From positions 1 through 32,000 of the forward strand of contig NQJD01000012.1 in assembly GCA_004284765.1 (NCBI GenBank): DNA of 32,000 nucleotides, read 5' to 3'. Below, in pieces: positions 6,527 to 23,727 of this stretch. The stretch is from Candidatus Electronema aureum. GTDB lineage: Bacteria; Desulfobacterota; Desulfobulbia; Desulfobulbales; Desulfobulbaceae. The position numbers and the translations under genes were made by a program. The stretch's first letter is position 1; each line of letters opens with the position of its first letter. Below the pieces are notes generated by a model. That model saw only the letters and a list, made by a program, of their open reading frames with translations. It had not been told where the DNA came from and ran no database searches.

Positions 6527-6768
6527 TTTCCTGCTCCTCCTGCCAGCATAGCCTTCAGCTCATCCACCGAGGAAGCCTTGCCGACCAGTTTCACCTCGCC
6601 GTCCACAACCAAGGCAGGTGTCGTCATCACACCGAACGATATAATTTGACGGATGTCTGTGACCTTCTCGATCTGGCAGTCAAGCTGAAGGGCTTTGGCA
6701 GCAGCTTCGGCGTGTTCCGCCAGCTTCTTGCACTTGGGGCAGCCAGTGCCCAGTATCTGGATCTTCAT
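6523..6768 (-). CDS. Small thioredoxin-fold protein (redox-active disulfide protein 2, TM0996/MTH895-like)
   Basis: 81 aa. It has the MKIQILGTGCPKCKK CxxC at the N-terminus and TPALVVDGEV near the C-terminus. AAAGGAGA lies upstream. This family is frequently adjacent to arsenite permeases. Confidence 0.8.
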   Translation of the reverse strand: MKIQILGTGCPKCKKLAEHAEAAAKALQLDCQIEKVTDIRQIISFGVMTTPALVVDGEVKLVGKASSVDELKAMLAGGAGK

Positions 6769-6843
6769 TGCAGTCTCCTTTGTTGTTTGTTTATCTGGCT
6801 TGTGGCATTCTCAAGACCAGCTCCTTCGCTGGCAGCCAGCCGT

Positions 6844-7443
6844 CTATTTCCTCTTCTTTCTCTCACGGCCAAGGATCACAGCGAACAGCTCGTTGATGTT
6901 GAAGGTGATGCCGAGGATAGTGATCTTTGGTTCAACAACACGGTTGAACACCTCTGCCGCCGACTCCTTGTCCTCCTGCTGCTTATCTATGTTCTGCATG
7001 ACACTGCGCAGCTCTCCCTTGTCCTTCGGCTGCACCAGTCCCAGCAGCTCCTTCACGCTGTATTCCTTGTCCGAGCCATCGGGAATATACAGGTCATTGC
7101 CCCGCTGGGCGTGCTTGAGCAGGGTCTCGTAATCCGCCGTGCGTTCCGGGTCATCGGGCATGGGCACACGCTCCCGGACGCGCAGCTTCTCAAAGCTGGC
7201 GTTGATCTCCCGCAGCGAGTACCAGAGGAAGTGCAGGTACTCCTTGCGGCGCGGGCCGTTCACCCAGAGGCTGATGCGCCGCTTCTCGTAATCCGCCTTG
7301 ACCGCAGCCTGCGCGCCGCCGTCCTTGTCCTGCAAGACCACGCCGGTGCGCCAGTGCTGCTCGCCCTTGATGTCCTTATGCAGCTTGACCATGAAGCGGG
7401 GCAGCACGGACAGCGGCAGAAAGTCCTCATGGAGGAAGTCCAC
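6844..7443 (-). pseudogene. COR-domain (COR-B) C-terminal fragment of a ROCO protein
   Basis: The frame opens right after an in-frame TAG at 7468-7470. The first possible start is GTG 7441-7443, with no SD. FLPLSVLPRFMVKLH, WRTGVVL and RISLWVNGPRRKEYLHFLWYSLREIN resemble the C-terminal half of COR domains. No Roc GTPase P-loop is present anywhere nearby. Confidence 0.55.
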
Positions 7444-7488
7444 CAGCGTCGTAATTAGAGGAGCGACCTATGGCACCCTGAGAGCAAG

Positions 7489-8106
7489 CTATCTGCGTGT
7501 GTGTAGTGCGGTAAAATACTGGCGAACGGCATAAATCCCCTTAATAGCTATTTCATATGGTGGGGAGGTGAGAGGGTTGATGTCAAGGCCAAGCACCATC
7601 AGGCTGGTGAGCTGGAATAGCTCAAGCGGCAGGGCGGTGAGCTGGTTGTTGCGGAGGTCAAGTTGCTCCAGCTTTGCAAGCTGGCAGATTTCAGGCGGCA
7701 GAGTGGTGAGCTGGTTACCGCCGAGGTGAAACCCCGTCAGGCTGGTGAGCTGGAACAGCGCAGGCGGCAGGGTGGTGAACTTGTTGCCGCCGAGGTAAAG
7801 TTTGTCCAGCTTGGTGAGCTGGCAGATTTTAGGCGGCAGGGTAGTGAGCTGGTTGCCGCTGAGGTGAAGCCACGCCAGGCTGATGAGCTGGTTGAAGTTA
7901 AGGTAAAGCTCCGCTAGCATGGTGAGCTGGCCAATCTCAGGCGGCAGGGCGGTGAGCTGGTTGCCGCTGAGGTCAAGTGCTCCCAGATTACTGAGCTGGC
8001 CAATCTCAGGCGGCAGGACGGTTAATCCTTTATTGCATAGGTCAAGCTCAGTCGCCCTGTTTGCCTTTGCACTCTTTATCACCCTCAGTAGCTCGTCATT
8101 CGTCAT
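7489..8106 (-). CDS. Leucine-rich repeat protein (N-terminal LRR module of a former ROCO gene)
   Basis: The start is chosen at ATG 8104-8106 (MTNDELL), preceded by AGGAGA. There are six to seven 23-aa LRRs, LxxLxLxGNQLTxLPPEIxQLxx. One unit is only 13 aa long (LAELYLNFNQLIS). The protein ends NPLTSPPYEIAIKGIYAVRQYF, the linker that normally precedes a Roc domain, followed 7 codons later by TAG. The ORF-track N-terminal extension to 8307 runs through a 23-bp tandem repeat. Confidence 0.8.
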   Translation of the reverse strand: MTNDELLRVIKSAKANRATELDLCNKGLTVLPPEIGQLSNLGALDLSGNQLTALPPEIGQLTMLAELYLNFNQLISLAWLHLSGNQLTTLPPKICQLTKLDKLYLGGNKFTTLPPALFQLTSLTGFHLGGNQLTTLPPEICQLAKLEQLDLRNNQLTALPLELFQLTSLMVLGLDINPLTSPPYEIAIKGIYAVRQYFTALHTRR

Positions 8107-8148
8107 CGCCTGTTCTCCTGTGTTGTTTGTGGGGTTGTATGGCATTCG

Positions 8149-8286
8149 GAGCAAGCACGCTTGGTCAGCAGCAGTAAGCCTGCTTGCCGGGTTTGAGCAC
8201 GCATGTGTGCTGGGTGTGAGCAAGCGTGCGTGCTGGATACGAGCAAGCATGTGTGCTCGGCAGGAGGAACCATGCGTGCCGACGGC
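8149..8286. repeat. Tandem array, 6 units of exactly 23 bp, each with an imperfect 16-nt palindrome
   Basis: The units start at 8149, 8172, 8195, 8218, 8241 and 8264. The best-conserved are GAGCACGCATGTGTGCTGGGTGT, GAGCAAGCGTGCGTGCTGGATAC and GAGCAAGCATGTGTGCTCGGCAG. The outer units are degenerate. The period is not divisible by 3. The array lies between the acr3 stop and the LRR gene start. Confidence 0.7.
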
Positions 8287-8450
8287 ATCGTGGCGTAGGG
8301 GCAACAAATCTTTTGCCCTGTTTGGTATTACCGTGCTGGTGCCAGGGCGAAAGATTTTTCGCCGCTACCTGAATCATCCTCAAGGGTGCCCTGCTAAATG
8401 CCGGATGGAACTGGATGCTGCTGCGTCCATGATTGTGTTGCAGAAATTTA

Positions 8451-9509
8451 TCAAAGGCTGGGTTCATTGAACATCCGCTTCCGCAGCATGAAGGCCGCAT
8501 TGACCAGCGCGATCATCACTGGCACTTCGATCAGCGGCCCGATGACCGCCGCGAAGGCTGCGCCGGAACCGATGCCGAACACGGCCACTGCGACGGCAAT
8601 CGCCAGCTCAAAGTTGTTGCTGGCGGCAGTGAAGGCGAGCGTGACCGTCTTGCCGTAGTCTGCCCCGACCATGCGCCCCATGAAAAAGGAGGCAAAGAAC
8701 ATGATCAGGAAGTAGATCAGCAGCGGCACAGCGATGCGCAGCACGTCCAAGGGCAGCGAGACGATGGCATCGCCCTTGAGGGAGAACATCACCACGATGG
8801 TGAAGAGCAGAGAGATCAGCGTGAGCGGGCTGATGCGCGGCACAAAGACGCTGTGATACCAGTCTTTGCCCTTGGCACGGATGAGCAGCAGGCGGGTGAA
8901 GAAGCCTGCCAGAAAGGGAATGCCCAGATAGATGAACACGCTCTTGGCGATTTCGCTAATGGTGATGTCAACGATGCTGCCTGTCATCCCGAACCATCCC
9001 GGCAGGACGGTGATGAACACCCAGGCGTACAGGCTGTAGAACAGAACTTGGAAGATGCTGTTGAAGGCCACCAGACCGGCGGCGTACTCGTTGTCGCCCT
9101 TGGCCAGCTCATTCCAGACAATGACCATTGCTATGCAGCGGGCCAGACCGATCAGGATGAGACCAGTCATGTATTCGGGGTAATCGCGCAGAAAGATGAC
9201 AGCAAGCAGGAACATCAGGACCGGGCCGATCAGCCAGTTCTGCACGAGCGACAAACCGAGGACTTTCCAGTTGCGGAACACATCGCCCAGCTCTTCATAA
9301 TGCACCTTGGCTAATGGCGGATACATCATGAGGATCAGGCCGACCGCAATCGGGATGTTGGTCGTGCCGACTGAGACCATGCTGTTCAAGCTGCTGACAG
9401 CACGGGGGAAGGCAAAGCCGATGCCGACCCCGATGCCCATTGCCAGAAATATCCACAGGGTCAGGTAGTGGTCGAGAAAGGACAGCTCTTTCGGTGATTC
9501 CTGCGTCAT
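8451..9509 (-). CDS. acr3: ACR3-family arsenite efflux permease
   Basis: 352 aa with about 10 TM segments. It carries [22 protein letters not shown], the hallmark [19 protein letters not shown] and [22 protein letters not shown] lies 6 nt upstream. Confidence 0.9.
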
Positions 9510-9629
9510 CGCGTTTCCTCCTGAGAATTAAAGGTGCCGCATCAGCGCGGCTTGGTCTTTGCCCTGCGTTTTGATCACCGCCTCAACGCAGTTCATGAAA
9601 ATTGCTTGCGGATGACTTATGCAGGAGGT

Positions 9630-10208
9630 CTAGTAAGCGGCCTCAGGCTTCAGTGTCATCAAAAACCTGCCTATCTCCTCGATAGTCAGCACCTGATCAG
9701 CGTGCACACAAAGTAGGGCAGAACGCGGCATTTCTGGGAACTGGGCGGTCTCAGGTCGCTGCACCAAGGTCAGGCCACCACAGTCCTTGATTCGTTTCAG
9801 GCCGAGTGCGCCGTCGCTATTGGCACCGGTAAGAACAACTCCAGCCAAGGCAGGGCCATAGACATCAGCCGCGCTCTCAAATAGCACATCAATTGAAGGA
9901 CGACAGAAGTTGACCTTCTCCTCCACCGACAAGGAAAAGGTCTCATCGTGCTCAATCAACAAGTGGTAGTCAGGAGGAGCTACATAGACATTGCCGGGCA
10001 ATATCTTCTCTCTCTCAGACGCTTCCTGTACCTTGAGATGGGTGCTGCTGCTGTAAAAGCGAAACAGGTATTCGCCCTGTTCGCGGTGCAGATGCTGAAC
10101 AATGATCAGCGGCAACCGAAAGCTCGTACCTAACTGGGCCAGCAGCGTCGCCACGGCCTGCATTCCACCTGCGGAGCAACCTGCAACCACAGCTCGGTAC
10201 TTCTTCAT
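9630..10208 (-). CDS. cheB: CheB-type protein-glutamate methylesterase, catalytic domain only (no receiver domain)
   Basis: 192 aa. It carries VVAGCSAGGMQA (nucleophile Ser region), PLIIVQHL (His) and VVLTGANSDGALG (Asp). There is a 4-nt overlap with cheR. Confidence 0.85.
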   Translation of the reverse strand: MKKYRAVVAGCSAGGMQAVATLLAQLGTSFRLPLIIVQHLHREQGEYLFRFYSSSTHLKVQEASEREKILPGNVYVAPPDYHLLIEHDETFSLSVEEKVNFCRPSIDVLFESAADVYGPALAGVVLTGANSDGALGLKRIKDCGGLTLVQRPETAQFPEMPRSALLCVHADQVLTIEEIGRFLMTLKPEAAY

Positions 10209-11056
10209 CGCGTGCGTCCTTCTCCGGCTTCCAGTACCCGCTTGCGGTAGATTCTATTCTTGCTATCGATCTCGTCATGGCGACCATCACCACAGGAGAA
10301 GCGCAGGCTTTCCTTGGTGCCGAGACAGAGGAAACCGCCCCGGATCAGACTGCTGTCTAAGAGTCGCAGCACCCGATCTTTCAGTTCCCGATCAAAGTAG
10401 ATCATCACATTGCGGCAAAGAATAAGGTGCATCTCGGCAAAGACGTGATCAGAGACTAAGTTATGATTAGCAAAGGTGATGCTCTTTTTTAGTTCTCGGT
10501 TCATGACGATGTGGTCATGCGAGGCGTGATAATATCTGCTGAACGAATCGTGCGGCCCGCTCTTCTGATAGTTCTCTGTGTATTCTCGTACTTGCCGGAG
10601 CGGATAGATACCCTCTTTCGCCACCGCTAATGCTTGGTCGTTGATGTCGGTAGCATAGATAGTTGAGTGAGCAGCTAATCCTTCCTCTTTGAGCAGAATA
10701 GCCAAGGAGTAGGCTTCCTCGCCGCAAGCACAGCCTGCTACCCAGACTCGGATAAAGGGGTACGTCTTGAGCAGTGGCACCACGTTCTCCCTCAGCGAAC
10801 GGAAGAACTCTGGGTCACGAAACATGCCGGACACAGTGATCGAGAAGGCAAAAAGCAGCTCTTGGAAGAAGGCAGGTTCATGCAGCAACTTGGGGATCAA
10901 CTCGCCTACCGAGGCAATGCCGCTCTGCTCCAGCAGGAGCCGCAGCCGCCGTACCACGCTGGCCCGCGCATAGCTGCGGAAGTCGTAGCCATAACGACGG
11001 AAGACTGCTTCTAACAGCAGATCGATCTCGATAGCCTCCAGCTCGCCTGAAGTCAT
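10205..11056 (-). CDS. cheR: CheR-type protein-glutamate O-methyltransferase
   Basis: 283 aa. The CheR N-domain is YGYDFRSYARASVVRRL. It is followed by MFRDPEFF, then the SAM-binding block IRVWVAGCACGEEAYSLAILL and ATDIN. Confidence 0.9.
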   Translation of the reverse strand: MTSGELEAIEIDLLLEAVFRRYGYDFRSYARASVVRRLRLLLEQSGIASVGELIPKLLHEPAFFQELLFAFSITVSGMFRDPEFFRSLRENVVPLLKTYPFIRVWVAGCACGEEAYSLAILLKEEGLAAHSTIYATDINDQALAVAKEGIYPLRQVREYTENYQKSGPHDSFSRYYHASHDHIVMNRELKKSITFANHNLVSDHVFAEMHLILCRNVMIYFDRELKDRVLRLLDSSLIRGGFLCLGTKESLRFSCGDGRHDEIDSKNRIYRKRVLEAGEGRTR

Positions 11057-11078
11057 CGCCCATCCCTTGCCGAGCCAC

Positions 11079-11216
11079 AGGTACGAGAGTACCTTCTCGT
11101 TGAGTACGAGAGTACCTTCTCGTTGAGTACGAGAGTACCTCCCCGTTTGGTATGGGAATACCTTTCCGTTGGGTACGAGAATACCTTTCCGTTAGGTATG
11201 AGAATACCTAACCAGA
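11079..11216. repeat. Tandem array, 6 units of exactly 23 bp, each carrying a hairpin-forming palindrome
   Basis: The units start at 11079, 11102, 11125, 11148, 11171 and 11194. Units 1-2 are GAGTACGAGAGTACCTTCTCGTT (unit 1 has A for the first G). The later units drift (TGGTATGGGAATACCTTTCCGTT and similar). Within a unit, GGTAC-N4-GTACC and ACGAGA-N6-TCTCGT are self-complementary. The array lies between the kinase stop (11302) and the cheR start (11056). Confidence 0.85.
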
Positions 11217-11301
11217 AACTACTCTGGTACCTTGGTACCAACCACTCTGGTGATTGACCGACAGGCTCTTTTCTTGTTATCAGCATGAATATCTTGACTA
11301 T

Positions 11302-14300
11302 CTATCTGTATAACCAAACTCGCATCATCGACAGCAACCGCTCTAAGTCAATCGGCTTGGCCAAGTAGTCGCTGGCTCCGGCCTCAATACACTTTTCCCG
11401 GTCTTCCTTCATTGCCTTGGCAGTCAGGGCAATCACCGGCAGATCGCGGAACTCGCGCTGCGCCCTGATCTTACGGGTGGCCTCGTAGCCGTCCATCTCT
11501 GGCATCATGATGTCCATCAGCACTAAATCAATTTGCCCGTCTTCAGCTAAAGCCTTCAGGGCTTTCTTCCCATCTTCAGCGATGATCACTTCCATGCCTT
11601 TGTCCTCTAAAATACCAGAGAGGGCAAAGACATTCCGCATGTCATCATCAACCAAAAGGATACGCTTGCCCTTGAAGATGTTCTCTTGATCGTACAGTCC
11701 GGTGATGATCTCTTGCTTCTTGTCTGGCATTTGCTCCACCACCCGATGCAGAAAGAGCGAGGTCTCGTCTAAAAGCCGTTCGCGGGAGCGGGCATTCTTA
11801 ATGATGATCGACTCGGCATACTTGTTCAGCTCTTTCTCCTCGTCGCGGCTCAGTTCCCTACCAGTGTAGATAATCACCGGCGGCACCCTGAGACCTTGCT
11901 CGGCGACTAACGTGCGCAGCAGCTCGATGCCGTTGCAGTCGGGTAAGCCTAAGTCTAAGACCATGCAGTCGAACTGCTGGCTGTGCAGCAATTCATTGGC
12001 TTCTGCACCGGTCTTGGCCTCCTCAATCACGGTGTCCTCGCTGCCTACCAGCTCAACCAAAGCGGCTCGCAGGACATTGTCGTCCTCCACCACCAAAAGT
12101 CGCTTGACCTTGCTGCTACTGATTGACTCAAAGCGGGCCAGTGCCTCAGCGATCTGTTCCTGATCTACTGGCTTAGTGAAGAAGCCCACCGCACCCTGCC
12201 GGAAGGCTTCTCGACTGCCTTCCTCCACTGACATCATATGTACCGGGATATGCCGGGTGCTGGGATTGGTCTTCAGACTGGTTAGCACGGTCCAGCCGTC
12301 AATGCCGGGCAGCTTGATGTCAAGGATAATGCCAGTGGGCTGATGCCGCTCGGCCAGCTGAAGTCCCTCTTCACCGGTCTCAGCAGCCAAGACTTTGAAG
12401 CTGCGCTGACGGCATTGATCCATGAGAATCTTAGCGAACTTGCGGTCATCCTCAATGATCAGGATGCTGCGCGTCTCAGGAGTCAGGCGGTTGCGGTCGT
12501 CAGTAGGTATCTCCTGCGGCGGCTGCTGTCTGGGTGATAACGAGAAGGCAGCAGGCCGAGGCGGTGCAGTCGGTGTTCTTTCCTTTTCGTCTGGGGTCTC
12601 AGGACAGCTCAGGGGTAGATAGAGGGTGAAGACTGAGCCTTTGCCCGGCTCACTGACGAGTTGAATCTCGCCGCCAAGCAACGCAGCTAACTCCCGCGAA
12701 ATCGACAAGCCAAGGCCAGTACCGCCGTACTTGCGGCCAGTGGAGCCGTCTGCCTGCTGGAACGCCTCAAAGATGATCTTCTGCTTATCCTGCGGAATGC
12801 CAATGCCGGTGTCAGTCACGCTGATCGCAATACTCTCGTCAGCCAGCAAACCCTCACGGCGGAGGCGAGTGTTCTTTGGCGGTTGGGTGAAAGCCAGCCT
12901 AACGCTGCCTGTTTCAGTGAACTTGATGCTGTTGCCGATGAAGTTCTTCACAATCTGCTCGATTCGCTTGCGGTCGGTGAAGATGTTCTCTGGCAAGGCG
13001 GGATCAATGCTGACCGAGAACTCTAACCCTTTCAGCTCGGCCATGTGCCGGAAGAGATTGCGGGCGTTCTCAGCCACCTCGGTCAACGGCACTTCCTCGG
13101 CTTCCACTTCCACCCGACCTGCCTCAATCTTAGACAGATCAAGTATCTCGTTGATCAGGTTGAGCAGGTCTTTACCTGACTCAACAATCACTCCGGCAGC
13201 TTCCTGCTGATGTTCGGTCAGATTGCCCTGCTTGTTATCCGATAGCGTCTGGGAGAGCAGCAGCAGGCTGTTGAGCGGGGTGCGCAGCTCGTGGCTCATG
13301 TTGGCCAAGAACTCGGACTTATACTTGGAAGCCAAGGCTAAATCGCGCGAACGCTCCTCAATCTCCTCGCGGGCGGCAATCAGCTCTTGGTTGCGTGTCT
13401 CAATCTCATTCTTCTGTGAGATCAGTGCCTCGGTTTTCTCTTTGAGGCGGGAGTTGGTGGCCTCTAACTCCGCTTGCTGGCTTTCTAATTCCTCTTGGAA
13501 CTCTTTCAGCGCAACGGTCTGCGCCTCTAATTCCTCGTTGGTCGTCTTCAGCTCTTCGCTCTGATGCCGCAGTTCCTCAGACTGCCGTTGGGTCTCTTCC
13601 AGCAGCTCCTGCACCTCTTGGCGACGACGGGCGACATCAAAGACAATGGCAATGCTGCTGGTTACATCGCGGAGGAAATTCATATCCGCATCAGAGAATT
13701 CTTTGAACGAGGCCAGCTCAATCACACCCACCAACCGGTCTTCATGAAGAAAAGGAGCAGCCACGATGTTACAAGGCGCAGCGTCACCCAGCGTCGAGCT
13801 GATGCGAACATAGCCTTCAGGTAGATCAGTGACAGAGATGAGCGACTTCTCCAGCGCGGCCTGCCCGGCCAACCCCTCGCCCAGCTCAATCATCGAATTG
13901 AGGCCCTTGCGTTTACTGAAGGCGTAGCTGCCGGTCATAAGTAAGGCTTTTCCACTTTTGTCAGCAAGATAAAGCGAGGCCATCTGCGCACCAAGATAGC
14001 GGACGAGAAAGCTGGTGATGGTCTGGGCCAGCATTCGTGCATCCTGCTGTCCTCGAGTCTGCTCAGACAACTCAGCGATGCCAGCCTTATGGCGGAAGTT
14101 CTTGGCCACCGTATCAACCATAAAGTCGAGCGCATCGGCCAGCTGGCCGATTTCATCCGAACGCCGCAGATGAAGCCGCTGCGTAAGGTCACCTGCGGCA
14201 ATGATATCTGCCACTCCTGCTGCATAGATAATTGGCTTGCTGATTGAACGGGCAATGAACCACGCTACCGCACCCACTGCCAAAAAAGTCAGCAGCAGGG

Positions 14301-15375
14301 CAGCGATGATGGAGTTCACCACTTGACGGCTTGCCTCGGCACTGGTCTTGTTCATCACGGTCTTGTAGCGCAGGGCTTCACTCTCGTTGACCTCGCAAAT
14401 CAGTGCCCAGCGCACGCCAAAGACATCAACCGAACTCCACGAGGACAGCACTGTGTTACCCAGATAATCCGTAATAACTCCGGTGCCGCTTTCGCCTTTG
14501 AGTGCGTTGCGGCTGGCCTCAGTGTTGACTTTGTTGCCCTGCCGAAAAGACTCCACCCGACTGTAGCGTTCCGGGGCCACCAATGAATCAGACCGCATGT
14601 AGCCGTCCTTGCCCACTAAATACGCCTCTAATGTTTTTTTATGCTCAGAGACTAACCTGATCATATTCCGCAGTGCTTCTGTGGAAGGCTGCACTGCCAG
14701 AAAGATATTGCCTTCGCCCTTGTTCTTGATTCTAGTGATGAGAAAGGCAGAAGGCTCGTTATTGAGTGGTGCGTAGGGCGCGTAATCGCCAAAAGCCATC
14801 TCTTGGCCAGAGTTCTGCTGGAGTTGAGCAAAAGCCCTGCCTAATGAACTGCTCATCAGTGGCGGACGACTGAGAGACAGGCCGAGGTCAGAGGCTTTGT
14901 TCAAGGAATAAATGATGCTGCCTTGAGCGTTAATCAAAAAGACGTTGTGCCAGTCAAAATCACGGCAGACATCTTGGAAGAGGAAGTCATTTTCTTTGGC
15001 TATCTTTTGCCACGCATCCGAGCTTACGGAGTTACCTGCACCCGCAAAAACTTGGCCAAATTCTTGAGACACCTGCATTAACCAAGGATTGTCCCGAAGC
15101 ATATACATCTGCCCTTCCATCTTCTTGAAAAAGGAGGCAATCTGCTTTTCCTTGATTTGGCACATGACCTTCAGCTCGTCGTAGGCAGCCTGCTCCACAG
15201 CGGCAACCCCTTGGCCGCCCACCGTCTTCAGTCCCTGCGAGGCGATCAACCACAGCATCACCCCGATGAAGAGCAGGGGAATAATGCCCACACAGAGATG
15301 GGAGGCGATCAGTCTGGTGTGCAGACCGCCTTTGACGGCGGTGCGACTACGGCTGGCGGCTGGCTGGTTCTTCAT
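11302..15375 (-). CDS. Hybrid sensor histidine kinase: TM, Cache-like periplasmic domain, TM, HAMP, GAF, long coiled coil, HisKA, HATPase_c, three receiver domains
   Basis: 1357 aa with two hydrophobic segments (aa ~22-45 and ~353-375). The HAMP region is SISKPIIYAAGVADIIAAGDLTQRL. A GAF-like region spans aa ~440-580. The H-box is FLANMSHELRTPLN, and the G-boxes are DTGIGI and GGTGLGLSISRELA. The three REC domains are ILIIEDD..ILDIKLPGIDG, LLVVEDD..VLDLGLPDCNG and ILLVDDD..LMDIMMPEMDG. Confidence 0.9.
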   Translation of the reverse strand: MKNQPAASRSRTAVKGGLHTRLIASHLCVGIIPLLFIGVMLWLIASQGLKTVGGQGVAAVEQAAYDELKVMCQIKEKQIASFFKKMEGQMYMLRDNPWLMQVSQEFGQVFAGAGNSVSSDAWQKIAKENDFLFQDVCRDFDWHNVFLINAQGSIIYSLNKASDLGLSLSRPPLMSSSLGRAFAQLQQNSGQEMAFGDYAPYAPLNNEPSAFLITRIKNKGEGNIFLAVQPSTEALRNMIRLVSEHKKTLEAYLVGKDGYMRSDSLVAPERYSRVESFRQGNKVNTEASRNALKGESGTGVITDYLGNTVLSSWSSVDVFGVRWALICEVNESEALRYKTVMNKTSAEASRQVVNSIIAALLLTFLAVGAVAWFIARSISKPIIYAAGVADIIAAGDLTQRLHLRRSDEIGQLADALDFMVDTVAKNFRHKAGIAELSEQTRGQQDARMLAQTITSFLVRYLGAQMASLYLADKSGKALLMTGSYAFSKRKGLNSMIELGEGLAGQAALEKSLISVTDLPEGYVRISSTLGDAAPCNIVAAPFLHEDRLVGVIELASFKEFSDADMNFLRDVTSSIAIVFDVARRRQEVQELLEETQRQSEELRHQSEELKTTNEELEAQTVALKEFQEELESQQAELEATNSRLKEKTEALISQKNEIETRNQELIAAREEIEERSRDLALASKYKSEFLANMSHELRTPLNSLLLLSQTLSDNKQGNLTEHQQEAAGVIVESGKDLLNLINEILDLSKIEAGRVEVEAEEVPLTEVAENARNLFRHMAELKGLEFSVSIDPALPENIFTDRKRIEQIVKNFIGNSIKFTETGSVRLAFTQPPKNTRLRREGLLADESIAISVTDTGIGIPQDKQKIIFEAFQQADGSTGRKYGGTGLGLSISRELAALLGGEIQLVSEPGKGSVFTLYLPLSCPETPDEKERTPTAPPRPAAFSLSPRQQPPQEIPTDDRNRLTPETRSILIIEDDRKFAKILMDQCRQRSFKVLAAETGEEGLQLAERHQPTGIILDIKLPGIDGWTVLTSLKTNPSTRHIPVHMMSVEEGSREAFRQGAVGFFTKPVDQEQIAEALARFESISSSKVKRLLVVEDDNVLRAALVELVGSEDTVIEEAKTGAEANELLHSQQFDCMVLDLGLPDCNGIELLRTLVAEQGLRVPPVIIYTGRELSRDEEKELNKYAESIIIKNARSRERLLDETSLFLHRVVEQMPDKKQEIITGLYDQENIFKGKRILLVDDDMRNVFALSGILEDKGMEVIIAEDGKKALKALAEDGQIDLVLMDIMMPEMDGYEATRKIRAQREFRDLPVIALTAKAMKEDREKCIEAGASDYLAKPIDLERLLSMMRVWLYR

Positions 15376-16357
15376 CGGCGCATTGATTGGTCAGGCTGTT
15401 GTAAACGATCACTCGGTTTCTGCCGCTTTCTTTGGCGCGGTACAGGGCGCGGTCGGCGCAGCAGATCAAGTCATCGGGTTGCTGCGGCTGGTGATTTTGA
15501 TACGAAGCGATGCCGATGCTGACAGTCATGCTGATACTGAATTGACCGTTGGCAAAGGGTTGTTCTAAGCAGTGATTGCGAATTTTCTCCGCCGCGATTA
15601 ACGCACCGCTGACATTGGTCTGTGGCAGCAGAATGATGAATTCCTCACCGCCAAAGCGAAAAGAAAAATCTGAACTACGGAGACCGGTGAGAATACGAGC
15701 AGCAAATTCTTTAATCACATAGTCGCCGAAATCGTGGCCGTAGCTGTCATTCACCTGTTTAAAATAGTCGAGATCGAGCATAAGCAACGACAGCTCGGTG
15801 CCGTAGCGTCGGCTCCGTTCCACCTCTCGCTTCATGACTTCAGCCAGCTTGCGCCGATTACAGAGACCGGTTAGTTCATCATGGGTAGCTAACCGCTCTA
15901 ACTGCCGGTTTTGTTCCAGCACTAATTGCTTAGTTCGCTCTAATTCACTGATGGTTTCTTTCAGTTGTTGCTGTTGTCGATAGATTTCTATGAAGAAAAG
16001 TACCTTGCCGATCAGGATTTCTGGGTGAAACGGCTTGGTGATGAAATCTACCGCTCCTGAATTATAGCCTTTGAAGATGTGAAAGCTGTCAGAATAAATG
16101 GCGGAGAGAAAAATAATTGGCAAACGACTGGTCTTCTCTCGGCCTCGGATTAGTCGGGCTAATTCGTAGCCGTCCATTTCCGGCATCTGCACATCAAGAA
16201 TGGCTAAGGCAAAGTCGTGATGAAGCAGCTCTCTAAGTGCGTCGTTGCCACTGGTGGCCTCGACAAACTCTGCCGTCACCTCTTGGAGAACGGTTTTCAG
16301 GGTGAAAAGATTGTTCGGTTTATCATCGACAATCAGTATCTTGATCTGCTCCGCCAT
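15347..16357 (-). CDS. Response regulator with GGDEF output (diguanylate cyclase)
   Basis: 336 aa. The REC domain is KILIVDDKPNN..ILDVQMPEMDGYEL. A coiled linker follows, then the GGDEF domain with LTGLCNRR and the RFGGEEF active site. Its 3' end overlaps the kinase start by 29 nt. Confidence 0.9.
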   Translation of the reverse strand: MAEQIKILIVDDKPNNLFTLKTVLQEVTAEFVEATSGNDALRELLHHDFALAILDVQMPEMDGYELARLIRGREKTSRLPIIFLSAIYSDSFHIFKGYNSGAVDFITKPFHPEILIGKVLFFIEIYRQQQQLKETISELERTKQLVLEQNRQLERLATHDELTGLCNRRKLAEVMKREVERSRRYGTELSLLMLDLDYFKQVNDSYGHDFGDYVIKEFAARILTGLRSSDFSFRFGGEEFIILLPQTNVSGALIAAEKIRNHCLEQPFANGQFSISMTVSIGIASYQNHQPQQPDDLICCADRALYRAKESGRNRVIVYNSLTNQCADEEPASRQP

Positions 16358-16381
16358 CGCCCTTACCTGAGTTGAATCGTG

Positions 16382-17392
16382 TCACCGGTCCCGACTGAGA
16401 ACATAATGAGCCAACCTACGGAGAATAGCCACGTTTTCTTGCTGATTGTCCTCAGTAAAGCAGGAGAGCGCGGCTAATCCGGTTGCCATTTCTTCTTCGG
16501 CCCGTTGGCGGCAGTAGATGAAACTGCCCAAGTTATTCATCACTTGTCGCACAATTACACAGGCCGCGCTATGGCGATCACCCTGAATGCTGTGCAGAAG
16601 CTCGGCTTTGTCCTGCCCTTCGGCACGACTGAGGGCATGAATCAGGGGTAAGGTCATTTTTCCTTCGGCAAAATCGTTGCCGACCTTCTTGCCGGTGGCC
16701 TGCTCGTCACCAAGATAATCAAGCAAATCATCAGCAATTTGAAAGGACAGGCCGATTTTTTCACCGTACAGCGTTAATGCCGCAAGCTGCTCTGAGTTGC
16801 CTTGCCCGTGCAGCGCACCCACTGCGCAGGCCGCGCTGATCAGTCCAGCAGTTTTCTTGCTAATAACCGCCAGATAGTGCGCTTCAGTTACAGTAGGATC
16901 GGCCACGCAGCGCATTTGAAGAAATTCACCGTCAACCATGCCTGCGGTGGCTGCGCAGAATACCTCTAAAGCCTGCGGTCCGGCCAGCGCACCGATCAGG
17001 TGCATGGAGCGGGCGTGCAGCCAGTCTCCGGCCAGAATAGCAGCGGCTGTGCCGTATTGACTGACTACGGACTTGCGGCCACGGCGGTTCTCGGCGTGAT
17101 CCAGCACATCGTCGTGAAGCAGGGTGGCGGTGTGCAGATATTCAAAGGCAGCGGCCAGTAGGCGGAGCTGCTGCCTATCGCCTTTGCCGCAAAGCCGCGA
17201 GCTGATCGCAGTCAGCAGAGGCCGCAGGCGTTTGCCACCGCCCAGCAGGGCGTAATTCAACACCTCGGCCAGCAGCGGATCGCTGCCGCGCAGCGTAGCG
17301 GCAAGATCAGAGCGCATGGACTCTTCGGCGTGGGCGGCGTTGTCAGCGATCTGAGCAAACAGGGCAGCAGTTTCCGCTGCGGACGGCTTCAT
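16382..17392 (-). CDS. Polyprenyl diphosphate synthase (trans-IPPS, IspB-like long-chain type)
   Basis: 336 aa. The first Asp-rich motif is LLHDDVLD and the second is QIADDLLD. GKRLRP is also present. Confidence 0.85.
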   Translation of the reverse strand: MKPSAAETAALFAQIADNAAHAEESMRSDLAATLRGSDPLLAEVLNYALLGGGKRLRPLLTAISSRLCGKGDRQQLRLLAAAFEYLHTATLLHDDVLDHAENRRGRKSVVSQYGTAAAILAGDWLHARSMHLIGALAGPQALEVFCAATAGMVDGEFLQMRCVADPTVTEAHYLAVISKKTAGLISAACAVGALHGQGNSEQLAALTLYGEKIGLSFQIADDLLDYLGDEQATGKKVGNDFAEGKMTLPLIHALSRAEGQDKAELLHSIQGDRHSAACVIVRQVMNNLGSFIYCRQRAEEEMATGLAALSCFTEDNQQENVAILRRLAHYVLSRDR

Positions 17393-17437
17393 CTTTTTTT
17401 CTTCCTTGGTATAATAACAGGTGAACTGCGGATTGGT

Positions 17438-19405
17438 TCAAGAGGCGAAGAATTTTTTTACCTCCCGCATGGTGCGAGTCAGCGGCGAAGGCGGTAGGCT
17501 GGCAATGAACCTGCCGCCGTAAGGCTTGGTGAACAGGCGCACGTCAAGGACAGCAGCCACGCCTCGGTCTCCGGCCCGACGCATCAACCTACCCACGCCC
17601 TGCCGCAGGCCGAGAATTGCCCTTGGCACCTGAAATTCCGAAAACGGATTGCCGCCCGTAGCCTTGATCCGTTCAATCCGAGCCAACAGCACCGGATCAG
17701 TGGGAACTTCAAAAGGCAGTTTGTCGATGATGACCATGCTCAGAGATTCTCCCGGCACATCAACCCCTTCCCAAAAGCTGGCCACCGCAAAGAGTACCGA
17801 GTCGGTTTCCTCGCTGAAACGGGTCAATAGCTGCTGGCGGGAAGCTGTACCTTGACGGAGCAACGGGTAGTTCAGCTCGTCACGCAGGCTGTGCCAAGCT
17901 AACTCCAAGGCTTGGAAAGAGGTAAACAGCACCAAGGCGCGCCCGCGTGAGCAGATGAGCAAATTTTTGATTTCCTGATGCAGCTTTTCCCGGTAGCCAG
18001 GGCCGTTGGGTTCAGGAAAACTGCCGTCTGGCACATAGAGCAGGGTTCGCTTTTTGTAATCAAATGGCGAAGGAAAGGAAAGAGACGGGCTGTTTTCTGG
18101 AATACCAAGGCGACGGCTGAAATAGCCAAAGCCTACGCCCGCGCTGAGGGTGGCCGAGGTAAAAACACAGTGCTGCACCTGAGCAAAAAGCACCTTTTGC
18201 AGGTCAGTAGCGACATCAATGGGTGTGGCAGTCAGGGTGAGGTTTTTTTCGCTCCGCTCAAACCAGCGGACATGGCTGCTTTGCTCGGCAGTGGGCTGGG
18301 TCGTGATTTGGTCGAGGCAATCGCCCATGTCTTCGCAGCGGGGCAAGAATTGCTTCCACGGGCCGTCGGTTTCTTTTTCAGCAGTTAGCTCTAACTGGTC
18401 GGCCAAAAATTCCAGATCAGCGCGGAGCGCGTCTTTGAGCGGAACAAGCACGGGTTGCGCTGCAAAAAGGTCAGGCAGCGAGAAGCGGCCTTTAGGTGGC
18501 GGGAAAAGGTTGAAAAAACGTTCGCCTATTCCTGCTAAGTTTTCCACCGCAGTGAAAATTTTTTTATGCTTCCGCTTGCCGCCGCTCTCCCGCGCTGCTT
18601 TTTCAACATCAGCAATCAGGTCAACGAGCTGGTAGCGGGAAAAGGAGAAGCCGAAGAATTGGGCGGCAATGTCTTCCAAATGATGCGCTTCATCAAAAAT
18701 AACAGTTTCATAACGAGGCAGCACTTCGCCATAACCGCTCCGGCGCACCGCCAAGTCGGAAAAAAGAAGATGGTGATTAACCACCAAAAGCTGGCAAGTG
18801 GCGGCTTCACGACGAACTTTGTTCAGATAGCAGCGGCTGTGATCAGGACAGTCCGAGCCGAGGCAGAAATGAGTCTGGCAGCAAATTTTCTGCCAGAGCG
18901 ACGAGCTGCCAGAAAGACTGGGGAGTTCGGCCCGATCAGCAAAGGTAGTTTTTTTTAGCCAAGCGCGGAGCTGGGCTGTTGTGATGTCCCCGCTTTCCTC
19001 GGCAGCGGCGAACAATTCCTGCTGGCCACCTGCCGTGAGCTGGTGCCAGCGGTGCAGACAGAGGTAGTTTTGGCGGCCTTTGACGCACATCGCCTTGAGA
19101 TCAGGGGCAAGATGCTCGCGAATGAAAGGAATCTCGCGGCTAAGGATTTGATCTTGCAAATTGCGGGTATTGGTTGAGACCATTGCCTTGCGTCCGCTCA
19201 GAACAGTCGGAATCAGATAAGCCAAGGTCTTACCTAAACCGGTTTCTGCTTCCACGATCAGGCAGGCAGCAGGCGGGTCGTCTTGCCGCGCCAGCAGCTT
19301 GGCAACTGCCGCAGCCATTTTTTGTTGGCCAAGACGGGCCTCGTGTTCTGGTAAGTGCCGGGATAAAATACCTGCCGGGCCGAAAATTTCTTTCATCTGC
19401 TCCAT
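17438..19405 (-). CDS. dinG: ATP-dependent DNA helicase, DinG/XPD (Rad3) family with Fe-S cluster cysteines
   Basis: 655 aa. Walker A is ETGLGKTLAYLIP and the DEAH box is FDEAHHLED. A Cys cluster (C..CLHRW ... CCQTHFCLGSDCPDHSRCYL) lies between motifs I and II, as in XPD-type helicases. The C-terminal motifs are SATLS and GVGRLMR. Confidence 0.85.
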   Translation of the reverse strand: MEQMKEIFGPAGILSRHLPEHEARLGQQKMAAAVAKLLARQDDPPAACLIVEAETGLGKTLAYLIPTVLSGRKAMVSTNTRNLQDQILSREIPFIREHLAPDLKAMCVKGRQNYLCLHRWHQLTAGGQQELFAAAEESGDITTAQLRAWLKKTTFADRAELPSLSGSSSLWQKICCQTHFCLGSDCPDHSRCYLNKVRREAATCQLLVVNHHLLFSDLAVRRSGYGEVLPRYETVIFDEAHHLEDIAAQFFGFSFSRYQLVDLIADVEKAARESGGKRKHKKIFTAVENLAGIGERFFNLFPPPKGRFSLPDLFAAQPVLVPLKDALRADLEFLADQLELTAEKETDGPWKQFLPRCEDMGDCLDQITTQPTAEQSSHVRWFERSEKNLTLTATPIDVATDLQKVLFAQVQHCVFTSATLSAGVGFGYFSRRLGIPENSPSLSFPSPFDYKKRTLLYVPDGSFPEPNGPGYREKLHQEIKNLLICSRGRALVLFTSFQALELAWHSLRDELNYPLLRQGTASRQQLLTRFSEETDSVLFAVASFWEGVDVPGESLSMVIIDKLPFEVPTDPVLLARIERIKATGGNPFSEFQVPRAILGLRQGVGRLMRRAGDRGVAAVLDVRLFTKPYGGRFIASLPPSPLTRTMREVKKFFAS

Positions 19406-19545
19406 AGTCTCTGATTATCTCCTCCGGGGCGCAGCATAACGTTGACGTTTTTCAGTTGTCAACAACAAAGGCATAAAGTAGTAATGATTATTGAGGAGAT
19501 TCATTCCTGTTCCTCTGCCGCAGAACCTTTACCCGTAAAACGGCC

Positions 19546-21369
19546 ATGTGTGATCCAGCTCCCCATCAGCCTGCCGCGCTCCTGCATGAGGATGTCTATC
19601 TTGAGGATGGCGAAGTCGTCCTTGCGGTGGATGATTTCGTCCAGATAGCCGATATCATTCAGGCGTATCTCCAGCACCGCTGCCTCAAAACCATGACCGC
19701 TGGTTCGGTGGCCGAATTTCGGCAGATGCTGAAGCAGGTGCCGGTGGCTTTGGTGCTGTTGGATATTAATCTACCTGACGGCAACGGCGCGGATTTGATC
19801 CCAGAAATTAAGGCAGCTTATCCCGATACCGCTGTGATTATGCTCTCCGGCGTGACTGATCTCCAGACCGCGCTCAAGTGCATCCGCCACGGCGCGGACG
19901 ATTACCTGACCAAGCCGGTGCAGTTTGAGCCATTCTGGGAGACGGTGCGCAAGGTACTGGAAAAACGACGGCTGAAGATCAACAACCGTCGTTATCAAAA
20001 GCAGATTGAGCAGGCAAATTTTCGCCTTCAATTGATGCATGAGCTGTCAGTAAAGATGAACACGGCCTACCTCAGCATGAATGCCTTGGATGAAATTCTG
20101 CGGGCTATTTTGGTAGGTATCACCGCTGAAGAAGGGCTGGGCTTCAACCGAGCCTTTCTCGCTCTTTTCGATGACTCCGAGCAGATACTCGAAGGCCGGA
20201 TGGCAATCGGGCCAGGCCGCCGAGAGGACGCGCTCCGCATCTGGCAGGAGATTAACAAACAAGACCTCAGTTTTCACGATCTCATCGATTCTGTCCGTGG
20301 GCATGATTTTCATGAGGATAGCGAAGTGAACCGGATTGTCAGGGCATTGCGGATTGAGTCTGCCGACAAAGAGCATCTGCTCTTCCGCGCTGCCTCAGAA
20401 CGCCGGACTATTAATGTTTGCAGCGGCCAATGCGACTGCCCGGTGCCGGTGGAGTTGATGGGTCTTTTGGAGGAGGACAGCTTTGTGGTGGTGCCGCTTT
20501 TCTCCCAGAATCATTCGTTAGGTGTGATCATTGCCGATAATTTTGTCACTGGCAAGCAGATTGATGAAGAATTAGTTCATGCTTTGGAGAGCTTTGCCAG
20601 CCAAGCCAGTTTAGCAATTGAACATTGGCGAATGTACATGCATATGGAGCATAAAATCAATGAGTTAGAGACAGTCACCGAGGAATTAGACAAGAACAAA
20701 GATATGTTAGTGGAGGCCGAGCGTTATGCTGCGGTTGGCCAAGTAGCGGCACAGTTAGCCCACAACATCCGCAATCCGGTCACGGCTATTGGCGGCACCG
20801 CTCGATTGCTCAGTCGGAAGATCAGTGATCCGCAACAGCTCAATTTTCTCAGCATGATGATTAAAGAGGCAGTCAAAATTGAGCATACGCTGGAGGACTT
20901 GCTTAACTTTGTCGATAAAGAACAGCCTGCGATAGAACAGGTGCTGCTCTATCCATTGCTCATCAAATCACTGATGCTATTTTACAGCACTATGCAGAAG
21001 CAGGGGATTGAATACGAGGTGATCATGATTGATCGCCAGCTCATCTGTATGGTTGATCCCAAACAGATGAGACAGGTTTTTGTTCATCTGATCCGCAATG
21101 CAGTAGAGGCGATGGAGCAGGGCGGCAAGCTGATCATAGAAGCAGCGACCGCAGACGGACAGCTGCGCATCGCAGTGCGAGACAGCGGTCTTGGTATTGC
21201 TGAAGCGGACATCCGCCGGGCAACTGATCCCTTCTACACCACCAAGATCGCAGGCACTGGCGTTGGTTTGGCTTTAGTACAACGGGTGATCAAGGATCAC
21301 AACGGCTCGATGATTATTAGCAGGCGACCAAGCGGTGGCACGAAAGTTGCCCTTGTTCTGCCTGGATAA
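19546..21369 (+). CDS. Sensor histidine kinase with N-terminal receiver and GAF-like domain
   Basis: 607 aa. The REC domain is VLAVDD..LLDINLPDGNGADL..LSG..K. A GAF-like middle region follows. The H-box is AAQLAHNIRNPVTAIGG, and the HATPase motifs are HLIRNAVEAM, DSGLGI and GTGVGLALV. The frame opens at 19495 and the first start codon is ATG 19546. Confidence 0.85.
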   Translation: MCDPAPHQPAALLHEDVYLEDGEVVLAVDDFVQIADIIQAYLQHRCLKTMTAGSVAEFRQMLKQVPVALVLLDINLPDGNGADLIPEIKAAYPDTAVIMLSGVTDLQTALKCIRHGADDYLTKPVQFEPFWETVRKVLEKRRLKINNRRYQKQIEQANFRLQLMHELSVKMNTAYLSMNALDEILRAILVGITAEEGLGFNRAFLALFDDSEQILEGRMAIGPGRREDALRIWQEINKQDLSFHDLIDSVRGHDFHEDSEVNRIVRALRIESADKEHLLFRAASERRTINVCSGQCDCPVPVELMGLLEEDSFVVVPLFSQNHSLGVIIADNFVTGKQIDEELVHALESFASQASLAIEHWRMYMHMEHKINELETVTEELDKNKDMLVEAERYAAVGQVAAQLAHNIRNPVTAIGGTARLLSRKISDPQQLNFLSMMIKEAVKIEHTLEDLLNFVDKEQPAIEQVLLYPLLIKSLMLFYSTMQKQGIEYEVIMIDRQLICMVDPKQMRQVFVHLIRNAVEAMEQGGKLIIEAATADGQLRIAVRDSGLGIAEADIRRATDPFYTTKIAGTGVGLALVQRVIKDHNGSMIISRRPSGGTKVALVLPG

Positions 21370-21459
21370 GCACGTTTGCAGTTGCTAAAACAGAGCGAAC
21401 CTGATACAGAAGGGAAGCATTTTCATCCCTATAAACATATTCTTCATAAGGAACAGATC

Positions 21460-22671
21460 ATGGCTCAGGAAATCATCCATCTTGCCGAACGGGTGCTACA
21501 AGTACCGCCTTCGCCGACGCTGGCAGTCAACGCCAAGGCCAAAGCACTCAAGGCAGCTGGTGAGGATATTTTGAATTTCAGCGTGGGTGAGCCGGATTTC
21601 GACACCCCGGAGCATGTACGCGAGGCCGGAAAAAAGGCGATTGATGACGGCCACACTCGTTACACGGCGGTACCCGGCATTCCAGAGCTGCGCGAGGCGG
21701 TCTGTATGCGCTTTAAGGAGGATCACGACTGGGACTATCATCCTGATCAGATTCAGGTTTGCTGCGGCGGCAAACAAGGGTTGTACAACATCTTTCAGGC
21801 CATGCTCAATCCCGGCGATGAAGTGCTGATTCCGGCTCCGTACTGGGTTTCTTATCCGCCGATCGTCCAGCTTGCGGGCGGTGTGCCGGTCGAGGTACCT
21901 TTGGATGAGGCAATGAATTTTGATCTCAACCCTAACACGTTAGCCGCTAAAGTAACCAGCAAGACTAAGGCTATTTTCCTCAACAGTCCGTCCAACCCAG
22001 CAGGCTCGATTTTCTCCGCCACGGCACTGGAAGCAGTGGCAAAAATGGCCTTGGAACGCGGCTGGTTAGTGGTTACAGACGACATCTATGAGACCATTAC
22101 CTATTTGGACGGCAAACTGCCGCACATTCTGGATGTGGAGCCGCGCCTGAAGACACAGACCGTGGTGCTGAACGGGGTGTCGAAATCCTTTGCCATGACT
22201 GGTTGGCGGATCGGCTACTGCGCCGGGCCTGCCCATTTGATCAAGGCAATGAACAAAATTCAGAGCCAATCGACTTCTAACCCCTGCACCCCGGCCCAGT
22301 ACGCGGCCTTAGCTGCTTTGATCGGGCCGCAGGATTTTCCCGGCATCATGAAGCAGGCTTTCCTGCCCCGGCGTGATTTCTTTGTTCAAGATTTGGAGTC
22401 GATTGAAGGCGTGAGTTGTGTCAATCCGAGCGGGGCATTCTATGTCTTTCCGAATTTCTCTGCGTATTACGGCAAATCATTCAAGGGCAAGGTGATTAAA
22501 GATTCAGTGGCAATGGCGGATTATTTCTTAGACGAGGCCAAAGTTGCCTCAGTGCCGGGTGCAGCTTTTGGTGCAGATGCCTTTGTTCGTTTTTCGTTTG
22601 CCACCTCAATGGAGGTTATTCAAGAAGGAATGACGCGGATTAAACAGGCGTTGGCTGCTTTGGCTGGTTGA
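21460..22671 (+). CDS. Class-I pyridoxal-phosphate aminotransferase (aspartate aminotransferase type)
   Basis: The start is moved to ATG 21460 (MAQEIIHLA), which has AAGGAA upstream; the ORF-track start at 21376 is a TTG. It carries LNFSVGEPDFDTP, HTRYT, YWVSYP and the PLP-lysine block NGVSKSFAMTGWRIGY. Confidence 0.85.
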   Translation: MAQEIIHLAERVLQVPPSPTLAVNAKAKALKAAGEDILNFSVGEPDFDTPEHVREAGKKAIDDGHTRYTAVPGIPELREAVCMRFKEDHDWDYHPDQIQVCCGGKQGLYNIFQAMLNPGDEVLIPAPYWVSYPPIVQLAGGVPVEVPLDEAMNFDLNPNTLAAKVTSKTKAIFLNSPSNPAGSIFSATALEAVAKMALERGWLVVTDDIYETITYLDGKLPHILDVEPRLKTQTVVLNGVSKSFAMTGWRIGYCAGPAHLIKAMNKIQSQSTSNPCTPAQYAALAALIGPQDFPGIMKQAFLPRRDFFVQDLESIEGVSCVNPSGAFYVFPNFSAYYGKSFKGKVIKDSVAMADYFLDEAKVASVPGAAFGADAFVRFSFATSMEVIQEGMTRIKQALAALAG

Positions 22672-22693
22672 TGCAAGAAGATTGATCTGCCGT

Positions 22694-22727
22694 GGGGACG
22701 GTTTTCGCACCGTCCCTTGTTTTTTAT
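22694..22727 (+). terminator. Rho-independent terminator after the aminotransferase gene
   Basis: The stem is GGGACGGT (22695-22702) paired with ACCGTCCC (22709-22716). The loop is 6 nt, and the stem is followed by TTGTTTTTTATT. Confidence 0.7.
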
Positions 22728-22824
22728 TAAACCTCCTGCATAACTCATTCGCTGAAATCAGTAGGGTCACGGCGCGTATTTTTCTGGCGCATTGAATAAC
22801 GAGCGTAAATCCTTATCAAATATT

Positions 22825-23700: not shown

Positions 23701-23727
23701 TAATTTTTCTCAGCTACAGGATAACTT

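Follow-up and report, generated by a model that had tools for sequence, protein, structure and literature searches.

Coiled coils that are predicted to accept methyl groups define two protein classes, the 'methyl-accepting coiled-coil' (MAC) classes MAC1 and MAC2, which were introduced by Wuichet and Zhulin (2010, Sci Signal 3:ra50; as summarised in PMC6943060 and bioRxiv 10.1101/2022.05.07.491037). In MAC1, the chemotaxis-type methyltransferase CheR and methylesterase CheB are fused to the protein that bears the coil. In MAC2, sensor and histidine kinase form one protein, CheR and CheB are separate, and there is no methyl-accepting chemotaxis protein (MCP), CheA or CheW. According to the 2022 preprint, MAC proteins are experimentally uncharacterised. 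Two further systems have been described in the literature. RsbK of Bacillus cereus is a CHASE3-HAMP-GAF-S-helix-HisKA-HATPase-REC kinase; the CheR-type enzyme RsbM methylates it in vitro, as shown by labelling, the authors assign the modification to the signalling helix (S-helix), and methylation keeps the pathway off (PMC4574943). The genomic association of RsbK with CheR was noted earlier by De Been and colleagues, as cited in PMC12848376. In Pseudomonas putida, which carries cfcABCDE and CfcR (PMC4951495, PMC6849547), the kinase CfcA is required for the receiver-diguanylate-cyclase regulator CfcR (PMC4951495). Here, we analysed a window of 32,000 nucleotides from Candidatus Electronema aureum (assembly GCA_004284765.1, contig NQJD01000012.1, positions 1 to 32,000 of the forward strand), which contains four co-directional genes on the minus strand. 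These encode a REC-GGDEF response regulator, a hybrid sensor histidine kinase with a long coiled coil, a CheR and a CheB. We consider it probable that this coil is the methyl-accepting signalling helix of a MAC2/RsbK-type kinase, in which CheR methylates, and a receiver-less CheB demethylates, the glutamate at position c of the E-E-L heptads.

The kinase gene (11302..15375, minus strand; open reading frame with translation, Pfam) encodes 1357 amino acids. Pfam matches give the order transmembrane segment, dCache_1 (aa 60-326), transmembrane segment, HAMP (373-422), GAF (445-579), coil (585-682), HisKA (686-753), HATPase_c (801-922) and three receiver domains. As in MAC2 proteins, sensor input and the HisKA/HATPase_c kinase are thus united in one polypeptide, and Pfam detected in it neither the MCPsignal domain (PF00015) of MCPs nor the CheB or CheR domains of MAC1 proteins. 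An initial annotation of the window had drawn attention to a peptide of 77 residues between the GAF domain and the H-box. This peptide is the exact minus-strand translation of 13351-13581 and corresponds to aa 599-675, which the GAF and HisKA matches flank as described. Leucine or isoleucine does occupy the fourth position of all 11 heptads (L602, L609, L616, L623, L630, L637, L644, L651, I658, L665, I672). The accompanying description as eleven x-E-E-L heptads holds only for the five E-E-[LI] heptads that start at residues 599, 606, 613, 627 and 669. One heptad reads Q-E-L (662) and the other five VAL, AEL, SRL, EAL and NEI, so that this heading was overstated.

The heptad register extends further than noted on both sides. 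Judged from the heptad print-out, an AlphaFold2 model and family conservation, the full signalling coiled coil comprises 14 heptads (aa 585-682; 13330..13623, minus strand), and it continues in phase to M693 and H695. The codon of the phospho-accepting His695, which was identified from the HisKA match and an invariant alignment column, lies at 13291..13293 (minus strand) in the H-box SKYKSEFLANMSHELRTPL. The glutamate pairs occupy positions b and c and leucine or isoleucine position d, while the a positions of the 11 heptads are all polar (S, S, N, T, Q, Q, N, T, K, N, R). With five E-E-[LI] triplets in 14 in-phase heptads, the kinase has the long coil with glutamate pairs between sensor and kinase that characterises MAC2. 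Such a ladder is rare in this genome. All 10,863 six-frame open reading frames (ORFs) with a length of 80 aa or more were compared. The longest in-register run of L/I/M/V (12) belongs to the kinase, and five in-register EE-[LIMV] triplets were found in two ORFs only, the kinase and a CheB-CheR fusion; three is the highest count in any other ORF, and 35 ORFs have two.

In an AlphaFold2 monomer model based on a 45-sequence alignment, aa 562-713 form one unbroken helix of 152 residues, with a predicted local distance difference test score of 92-98 up to about aa 669. We read the coil as one continuous helix and probably a parallel dimer; the dimer is suggested by the heptads together with what is known of HisKA kinases. 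The initial annotation had called the coil antiparallel-capable, an idea which the single modelled helix, the absence of PF00015 and the whole-heptad length differences among relatives speak against. An MCP-like antiparallel hairpin was accordingly discarded: there is no MCPsignal match, the modelled helix is continuous, proline occurs in the coil of 2 of 119 relatives and coil lengths are heptad-quantised. The likeness to MCPs such as Tar and Tsr lies in the adjacent Glu/Gln pairs on a long helix that serves as CheR/CheB substrate, whereas MCPsignal forms an antiparallel hairpin bundle and the window kinase has one continuous helix. The classical MCP methylation consensus is Glu-Glu-x-x-Ala-Ser/Thr. 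In the form [EQ][EQ]xx[ASTG][ASTG] it fits EELKTT and QELIAA and nearly AELEAT, where small residues stand at +3/+4 of the pair, and it does not fit the other pairs of the kinase. As the kinase resides in the same polypeptide, the system needs neither CheW nor CheA.

The proposed methylation of this helix draws on the comparison with RsbK. We recovered the B. cereus-group RsbK from Bacillales genomes, and all published landmarks fit the sequence (896 aa, H505, D827, N625, K879, T857, M829, D782-783). BLAST aligns the window kinase with RsbK over 731 aa at 35% identity (E 9e-132). The window CheR shares 48% identity over 270 aa (E 3e-93) with an ORF of 289 aa that lies 8 nt downstream of RsbK, in the position of RsbM. 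The two kinases share the HAMP-GAF-helix-HisKA-HATPase-REC core, the SKYKSEFLANMSHELRTPL H-box, xEELxxx heptads and a CheR-type partner encoded directly downstream. The RsbK helix reads TEELQVQ SEELQTQ AEELQMQ AEELRTT NEQLESR and is followed by the same SKYKSEFLANMSHELRTP H-box; BLAST pairs its heptads TEELQVQ SEELQTQ AEELQMQ with aa 599-619 of the window kinase. The proposal that the coil is a candidate CheR/CheB target is therefore supported in three ways: kinase and CheR are clear homologues of RsbK and of the ORF in the RsbM position, methylation of the RsbK helix is published, and the EEL heptads align at aa 599-619.

Several features set the window kinase apart from RsbK. RsbK has a CHASE3 sensor and one receiver domain, the window kinase a dCache sensor and three; the RsbK helix is four heptads shorter (10 compared with 14). 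RsbK has no CheB partner, whereas the window operon includes a receiver-less CheB, and its output is the phosphatase RsbY and, through it, sigma B, in place of which the window operon has the REC-GGDEF regulator. Since CheB and the co-operonic REC-GGDEF regulator are present, we class the operon as MAC2 rather than among the sigma B modules. In the RsbK study, the homologous segment goes by the name of S-helix (PMC4574943); the window coil, at 14 heptads, is much longer than an S-helix. In its definition by Anantharaman, Balaji and Aravind from 2006, the S-helix is said to be a module of some five heptads, in the centre of which a polar motif is conserved.

Candidate acceptor residues follow two blocks of the coil. 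The first, SEELRHQ SEELKTT NEELEAQ (aa 599-619; 13519..13581, minus strand), was delimited by family conservation and by BLAST against RsbK, and its position-c residues E601, E608 and E615 are, on sequence grounds, the most likely methyl acceptors. E629 and E636 are possible secondary sites predicted from the second block, QEELESQ QAELEAT (aa 627-640; 13456..13497, minus strand), which is defined by its sequence in a per-heptad table. Residues 439 and 446 of RsbK are each the second glutamate of an E-E-L triplet, and their BLAST partners are E608 and E615 of the window kinase.

The enzymes of the proposed modification are encoded directly downstream of the kinase on the same strand and, as in MAC2, by separate genes. 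The cheR gene (10205..11056, minus strand; Pfam) encodes 283 aa with CheR_N and CheR domains and retains the SAM (S-adenosylmethionine)-binding block, as judged by alignment with Bacillus subtilis CheR (5FTW). The cheB gene (9630..10208, minus strand), which overlaps cheR by 4 nt, encodes 192 aa that consist of the methylesterase catalytic domain alone (Pfam match to positions 1-173 of 174) and keep the Ser, His and Asp motifs GCSAGG, VQH and SDG when aligned with Thermotoga maritima CheB (3SFT). In canonical CheB a receiver domain couples the enzyme to CheA, whereas the window CheB has no receiver domain. This suggests that feedback would come from the conformation of the substrate rather than from phosphorylation of CheB.

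To place the methyltransferase, a tree of 88 CheR sequences was calculated, comprising 33 kinase-linked CheRs, the RsbM-position ORF, two cable-bacterial orthologues, 34 fusion CheRs and 18 others from related genomes. The 33 kinase-linked CheRs, which come from more than 10 phyla, form one clade with the RsbM-position ORF and the two orthologues (Shimodaira-Hasegawa-like approximate likelihood ratio test, SH-aLRT, 99). All 34 fusion CheRs fall into a separate clade (99), and the 18 others stand apart. The window CheR is, by its sequence, a member of a dedicated RsbM-type lineage of kinase-linked CheRs. The Pfam CheR score offers a simple diagnostic of this lineage: kinase-linked CheRs score about 127-146 bits with a match that ends near profile position 180, compared with about 178-218 bits for the canonical and fusion CheRs that these genomes encode.

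The GAF-coil-HisKA part of the kinase has more than 8000 relatives in many phyla, the best 120 of which are at least 50% identical. Counted back from the H-box, the alignment of their coils is gap-free, and the column of His695 is invariant. The family consensus consists of two blocks, QQEELRxxNEELEEQT and QQEELxxxNEELEEKT. The window kinase retains the first of them at aa 599-619, where the family's E-E pairs are best conserved. Glutamate occupies positions b and c in 91-96% of 119 relatives in the two best-conserved heptads, and in 66% and 71% in the heptad that starts at aa 599. The distances from the motif to the histidine are congruent modulo 7 in 158 of 180 cases (76, 83, 97, 104, 111, 118 and 132 residues). 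Coil length thus varies in whole heptads, which fits a rigid helix that has to keep the phase between GAF and the dimerisation and histidine phosphotransfer (DHp) helix. A subfamily whose coils are short (8-10 heptads) has the start motif NTIEATMRTE.. and only one QxEL-NxEL block. It occurs in very long kinases from Acidobacteriota, Actinomycetota and other groups (loci L029-L038, L045, L050-L052, L057-L059, L066, L069, L076-L086 and L088), and in these no CheR was found within 10 kb.

Gene linkage was surveyed in 80 loci from reference genomes, 72 of which contain a family kinase with a visible downstream region. In 32 of these 72, a CheR gene follows the kinase directly on the same strand, 24 times together with CheB and 8 times alone. 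At most 36 residues precede the catalytic domain of CheB in 22 of the 24 kinase-CheR-CheB loci, so that a receiver-less CheB is the rule in this family. An evolutionary link between the coil and the modifying enzymes, which the initial annotation had suspected, is thereby supported twice, by the single CheR clade that spans the phyla and by the recurrent gene order. In 5 of the 24 loci (L013, L024, L027, L063 and L068), the gene directly after CheB encodes a second, small kinase of the receiver-HisKA type (524-629 aa). These five loci recall the five-gene cluster cfcABCDE of P. putida; a gene of this kind is absent from the window.

A competing explanation is that the coil is a generic signal-transmitting helix, in which glutamates provide solubility and salt bridges, while CheR and CheB act on another part of the kinase or on the two MCPs of the genome. 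Glu-rich heptads are indeed common in coiled coils, and the coil is kept without a CheR nearby in 40 of the 72 related kinases, from which we conclude that it is primarily a signal transmitter. Strict E-E-L heptads are more frequent in CheR-linked than in unlinked kinases (means 3.5 and 1.1, Fisher p 6e-6), a difference that is confounded by subfamily and shared ancestry. An independent-pairs test, run on a kinase tree from which the coil was excluded, yielded 3 supported contrasts only and thus had no power. With phylogeny corrected for, E-E density is not significantly linked to CheR; we therefore dropped this correlation as evidence. Other observations argue against a merely generic helix. 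RsbM methylates RsbK on the homologous helix, the lineage of the window CheR was found only beside such kinases in our sample, and the E-E-L ladder is confined to two ORFs of the genome, which both belong to CheR/CheB systems. Furthermore, the MCPs are encoded on other contigs. A profile search of the genome returned three CheR and six CheB matches and placed the two MCPs and all CheW and CheA matches on contigs C4, C5 and C67, with none of MCP, CheA or CheW on the contig of the window, and C67 has its own CheR/CheB pair. As the chemosensory genes all lie on other contigs, the window pair stands outside any chemosensory cluster. Taken together, we regard the generic helix as unlikely.

Contig C5 carries three further CheB-domain matches within 6766-24398 (frames of 474, 345 and 596 aa) near one MCP and two CheW-domain matches, a chemosensory cluster that is unusually rich in CheB.

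Besides the 40 kinases without a neighbouring CheR and the powerless contrast test, some further points weigh against a methyl-accepting role of the coil. We know of no experimental case for the window kinase, nor for a MAC2 protein that is accompanied by CheB. The second block is a degenerate copy of the second family block QQEEL..NEELEEK, and the heptad that follows it, NSRLKEK, has no pair. The structural model is that of a monomer and is silent on the dimer and on the docking of the enzymes. Lastly, work by Chen and colleagues from 2012 reportedly placed the methyl groups of RsbK at E439 and E446, and a literature search found no mention of these two residues.

The fused MAC1 proteins offer a second comparison. 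The initial annotation had pointed to an (S/T)xNEEL repeat that follows CheR in CheB-CheR fusions, and such a repeat is present: six consecutive N-E-E-L-x-[AS]-[STV] heptads were found in 112 of the 120 best relatives of the fusion protein of this genome, and the fusion protein itself has the repeat as well. Its gene (contig C37:7267-10191; L090:7267-10191) encodes CheB-CheR-coil-PAS_10-PAS, with the coil RESLQAA NEQLQTS NEELLAS NEELLAS NEELQST NEELNSV NEELSTV. The ladder of the MAC1 fusions resembles that of the window kinase in register, with N at position a, E-E at b-c and L at d. With 6 perfect heptads it is shorter than the window coil and much more uniform, lies between CheR and PAS_10 rather than between GAF and HisKA, and belongs to proteins whose CheR domains form a clade separate from that of the window CheR; in the window the two enzymes are separate from the coil-bearing protein.

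With a profile made from the kinase coil only, the fusion coil ranks second among the ORFs of the genome and is thus the best non-self match (E 3.7e-9). The same profile scores 120 of 120 fusions at 28-42 bits, compared with at most 19.7 bits for reversed sequences, and hhalign aligns the two coils in heptad register with a probability of 96%. This similarity could nevertheless stem from convergence or composition, the two systems then being unrelated apart from their CheR-type enzymes. Coiled-coil similarity is notoriously unreliable, and the reverse search is weak: the profile of the fusion coils gives the kinase 13 bits (E 0.047), behind an unrelated ORF, so that the similarity is asymmetric between the two profile directions, which likewise counts against the methylation proposal. 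In the CheR tree, moreover, fusion and kinase-linked CheRs are not resolved as sisters (branch length 0.034), nor is the order of the three groups. Convergence has to be set against the uniform scores of the fusions, the in-register alignment and the published MAC class, which takes both as one class. In addition, a 1252-aa coiled-coil protein encoded in the window was not matched by the kinase-coil profile. We find convergence a doubtful explanation, albeit one that deserves to be kept in mind. The motif common to the two coils is real; it may go back to common descent or to convergence.

The surroundings of the fusion gene were inspected as well. After its single stop, a PAS-PAS-HisKA-HATPase ORF (10195-12372) continues in the same frame and is followed by a lone receiver gene. 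We considered whether the in-frame stop marks a broken gene and rejected this, because cable-bacterial orthologues end at the same place (973-985 aa), which makes the stop the natural gene end. The enzyme-plus-coil part and the kinase part hence look like a naturally split pair. A MASE3 kinase beside the fusion gene (C37:3298-4986) reached E 0.0016 with the coil profile; its coil is short, and it was not counted as a member.

The output of the window kinase is likely the REC-GGDEF response regulator (336 aa; 15347..16357, minus strand; Pfam), which would synthesise cyclic di-GMP (c-di-GMP). Its translation has the receiver aspartate in LAILDVQMP, an intact GGEEF motif and an RSSD I-site. The stop end of this gene and the annotated start of the kinase gene share 29 nt (15347-15375). 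The kinase may in fact begin at a codon further downstream, or translation of the two genes may be coupled. In P. putida, CfcR is encoded elsewhere and has an additional EAL domain, whereas the window operon begins with its regulator gene; five genes make up the cfc cluster and four the window unit. A locus of Pseudomonas viridiflava in our linkage sample (L070) has the layout of P. putida cfc, and from this locus, rather than from the CfcA sequence, we conclude that CfcA probably belongs to the family of the window kinase. Based on the published MAC, RsbK-CheR and Cfc precedents, the window operon can be described as a MAC2 system that encodes a CfcR-like output in cis. By kind, it differs from MAC2 in nothing.

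We infer from these comparisons how the operon might work, including that the kinase is methylated, at which residues, the sign of the effect and the route of phosphotransfer. The periplasmic dCache domain would sense a ligand, and HAMP and GAF would relay the signal to the long continuous coiled-coil helix, which would run in fixed heptad phase into the DHp helix with His695. Using SAM, the adjacent dedicated CheR would methylate the second glutamate (c) of the E-E-L triplets, most probably E601, E608 and E615 and with lower probability E629 and E636, and the adjacent receiver-less CheB would strip the methyl groups again. Neutralisation of charge may shift the stability or packing of a coil that is predicted to be only marginally stable, with polar residues at a and leucine only at d. 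The altered packing could reset the on/off balance of the kinase and thereby provide adaptation or gain control. Phosphoryl groups would pass to the kinase's three receiver domains and also to the REC-GGDEF regulator of the operon and so govern c-di-GMP synthesis.

A variant of this scheme holds that the E-E ladder chiefly serves as a surface on which the receiver domains of the kinase itself, or the REC-GGDEF partner, can dock, so that methylation would tune this contact rather than coil packing. In RsbK, the receiver domain partly contacts the S-helix, and co-expressed RsbM makes the contact stronger in two-hybrid tests (PMC4574943); the window kinase has three receiver domains. In such a scheme the helix would still be a CheR substrate, and sequence data do not separate the two mechanisms. 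We regard docking as very unlikely and favour an effect of methylation on coil packing.

The kinase stop and the cheR start are 245 nt apart, and much of this spacer inside the operon is occupied by a tandem array of 5.7 copies of a 23-bp unit with 85% matches (11080..11209, no strand; Tandem Repeats Finder). In most related loci, the CheR match starts within about 140 nt of the end of the kinase. The gene after cheB encodes an SBF-family (ACR3-like) permease. Contigs from RNA libraries of two studies match segments of each of the four genes and of the spacer at an identity of at least 99%, among them 11111-11303 in the spacer and 15237-15476 and 15279-15517 across the REC-GGDEF/kinase junction. 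These contigs are uninformative on transcription level, strand and co-transcription, the parts they leave uncovered carry no meaning, and they provide only weak evidence for expression of the four genes.

The design of the window operon is already known from MAC2, RsbK/RsbM and CfcABC/CfcR of P. putida, and the operon is a good new example of it rather than a new principle. Its value is that the biochemically studied RsbK/RsbM and probably the genetically studied CfcABC/CfcR fall into the same family, to which it adds concrete candidate sites (E601, E608 and E615, followed by E629 and E636) and a complete unit of four genes with c-di-GMP output. To our knowledge there is no genetics for this cable bacterium. 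Reversible methylation gives chemotaxis its memory, and MAC2-type kinases would bring memory of this style into ordinary two-component signalling. It may be speculated that the N-E-E-L ladder is a portable methyl-acceptor code that is read by both the MAC1 and the MAC2 lineages of CheR, that CheR and the receiver-less CheB would lend the dCache kinase true sensory adaptation of its c-di-GMP output and that the two coils, the only ones of this type in the genome, might even be cross-methylated. We think this improbable. If it were true, two-component memory would feed the behaviour of a filamentous, electrically conducting organism.

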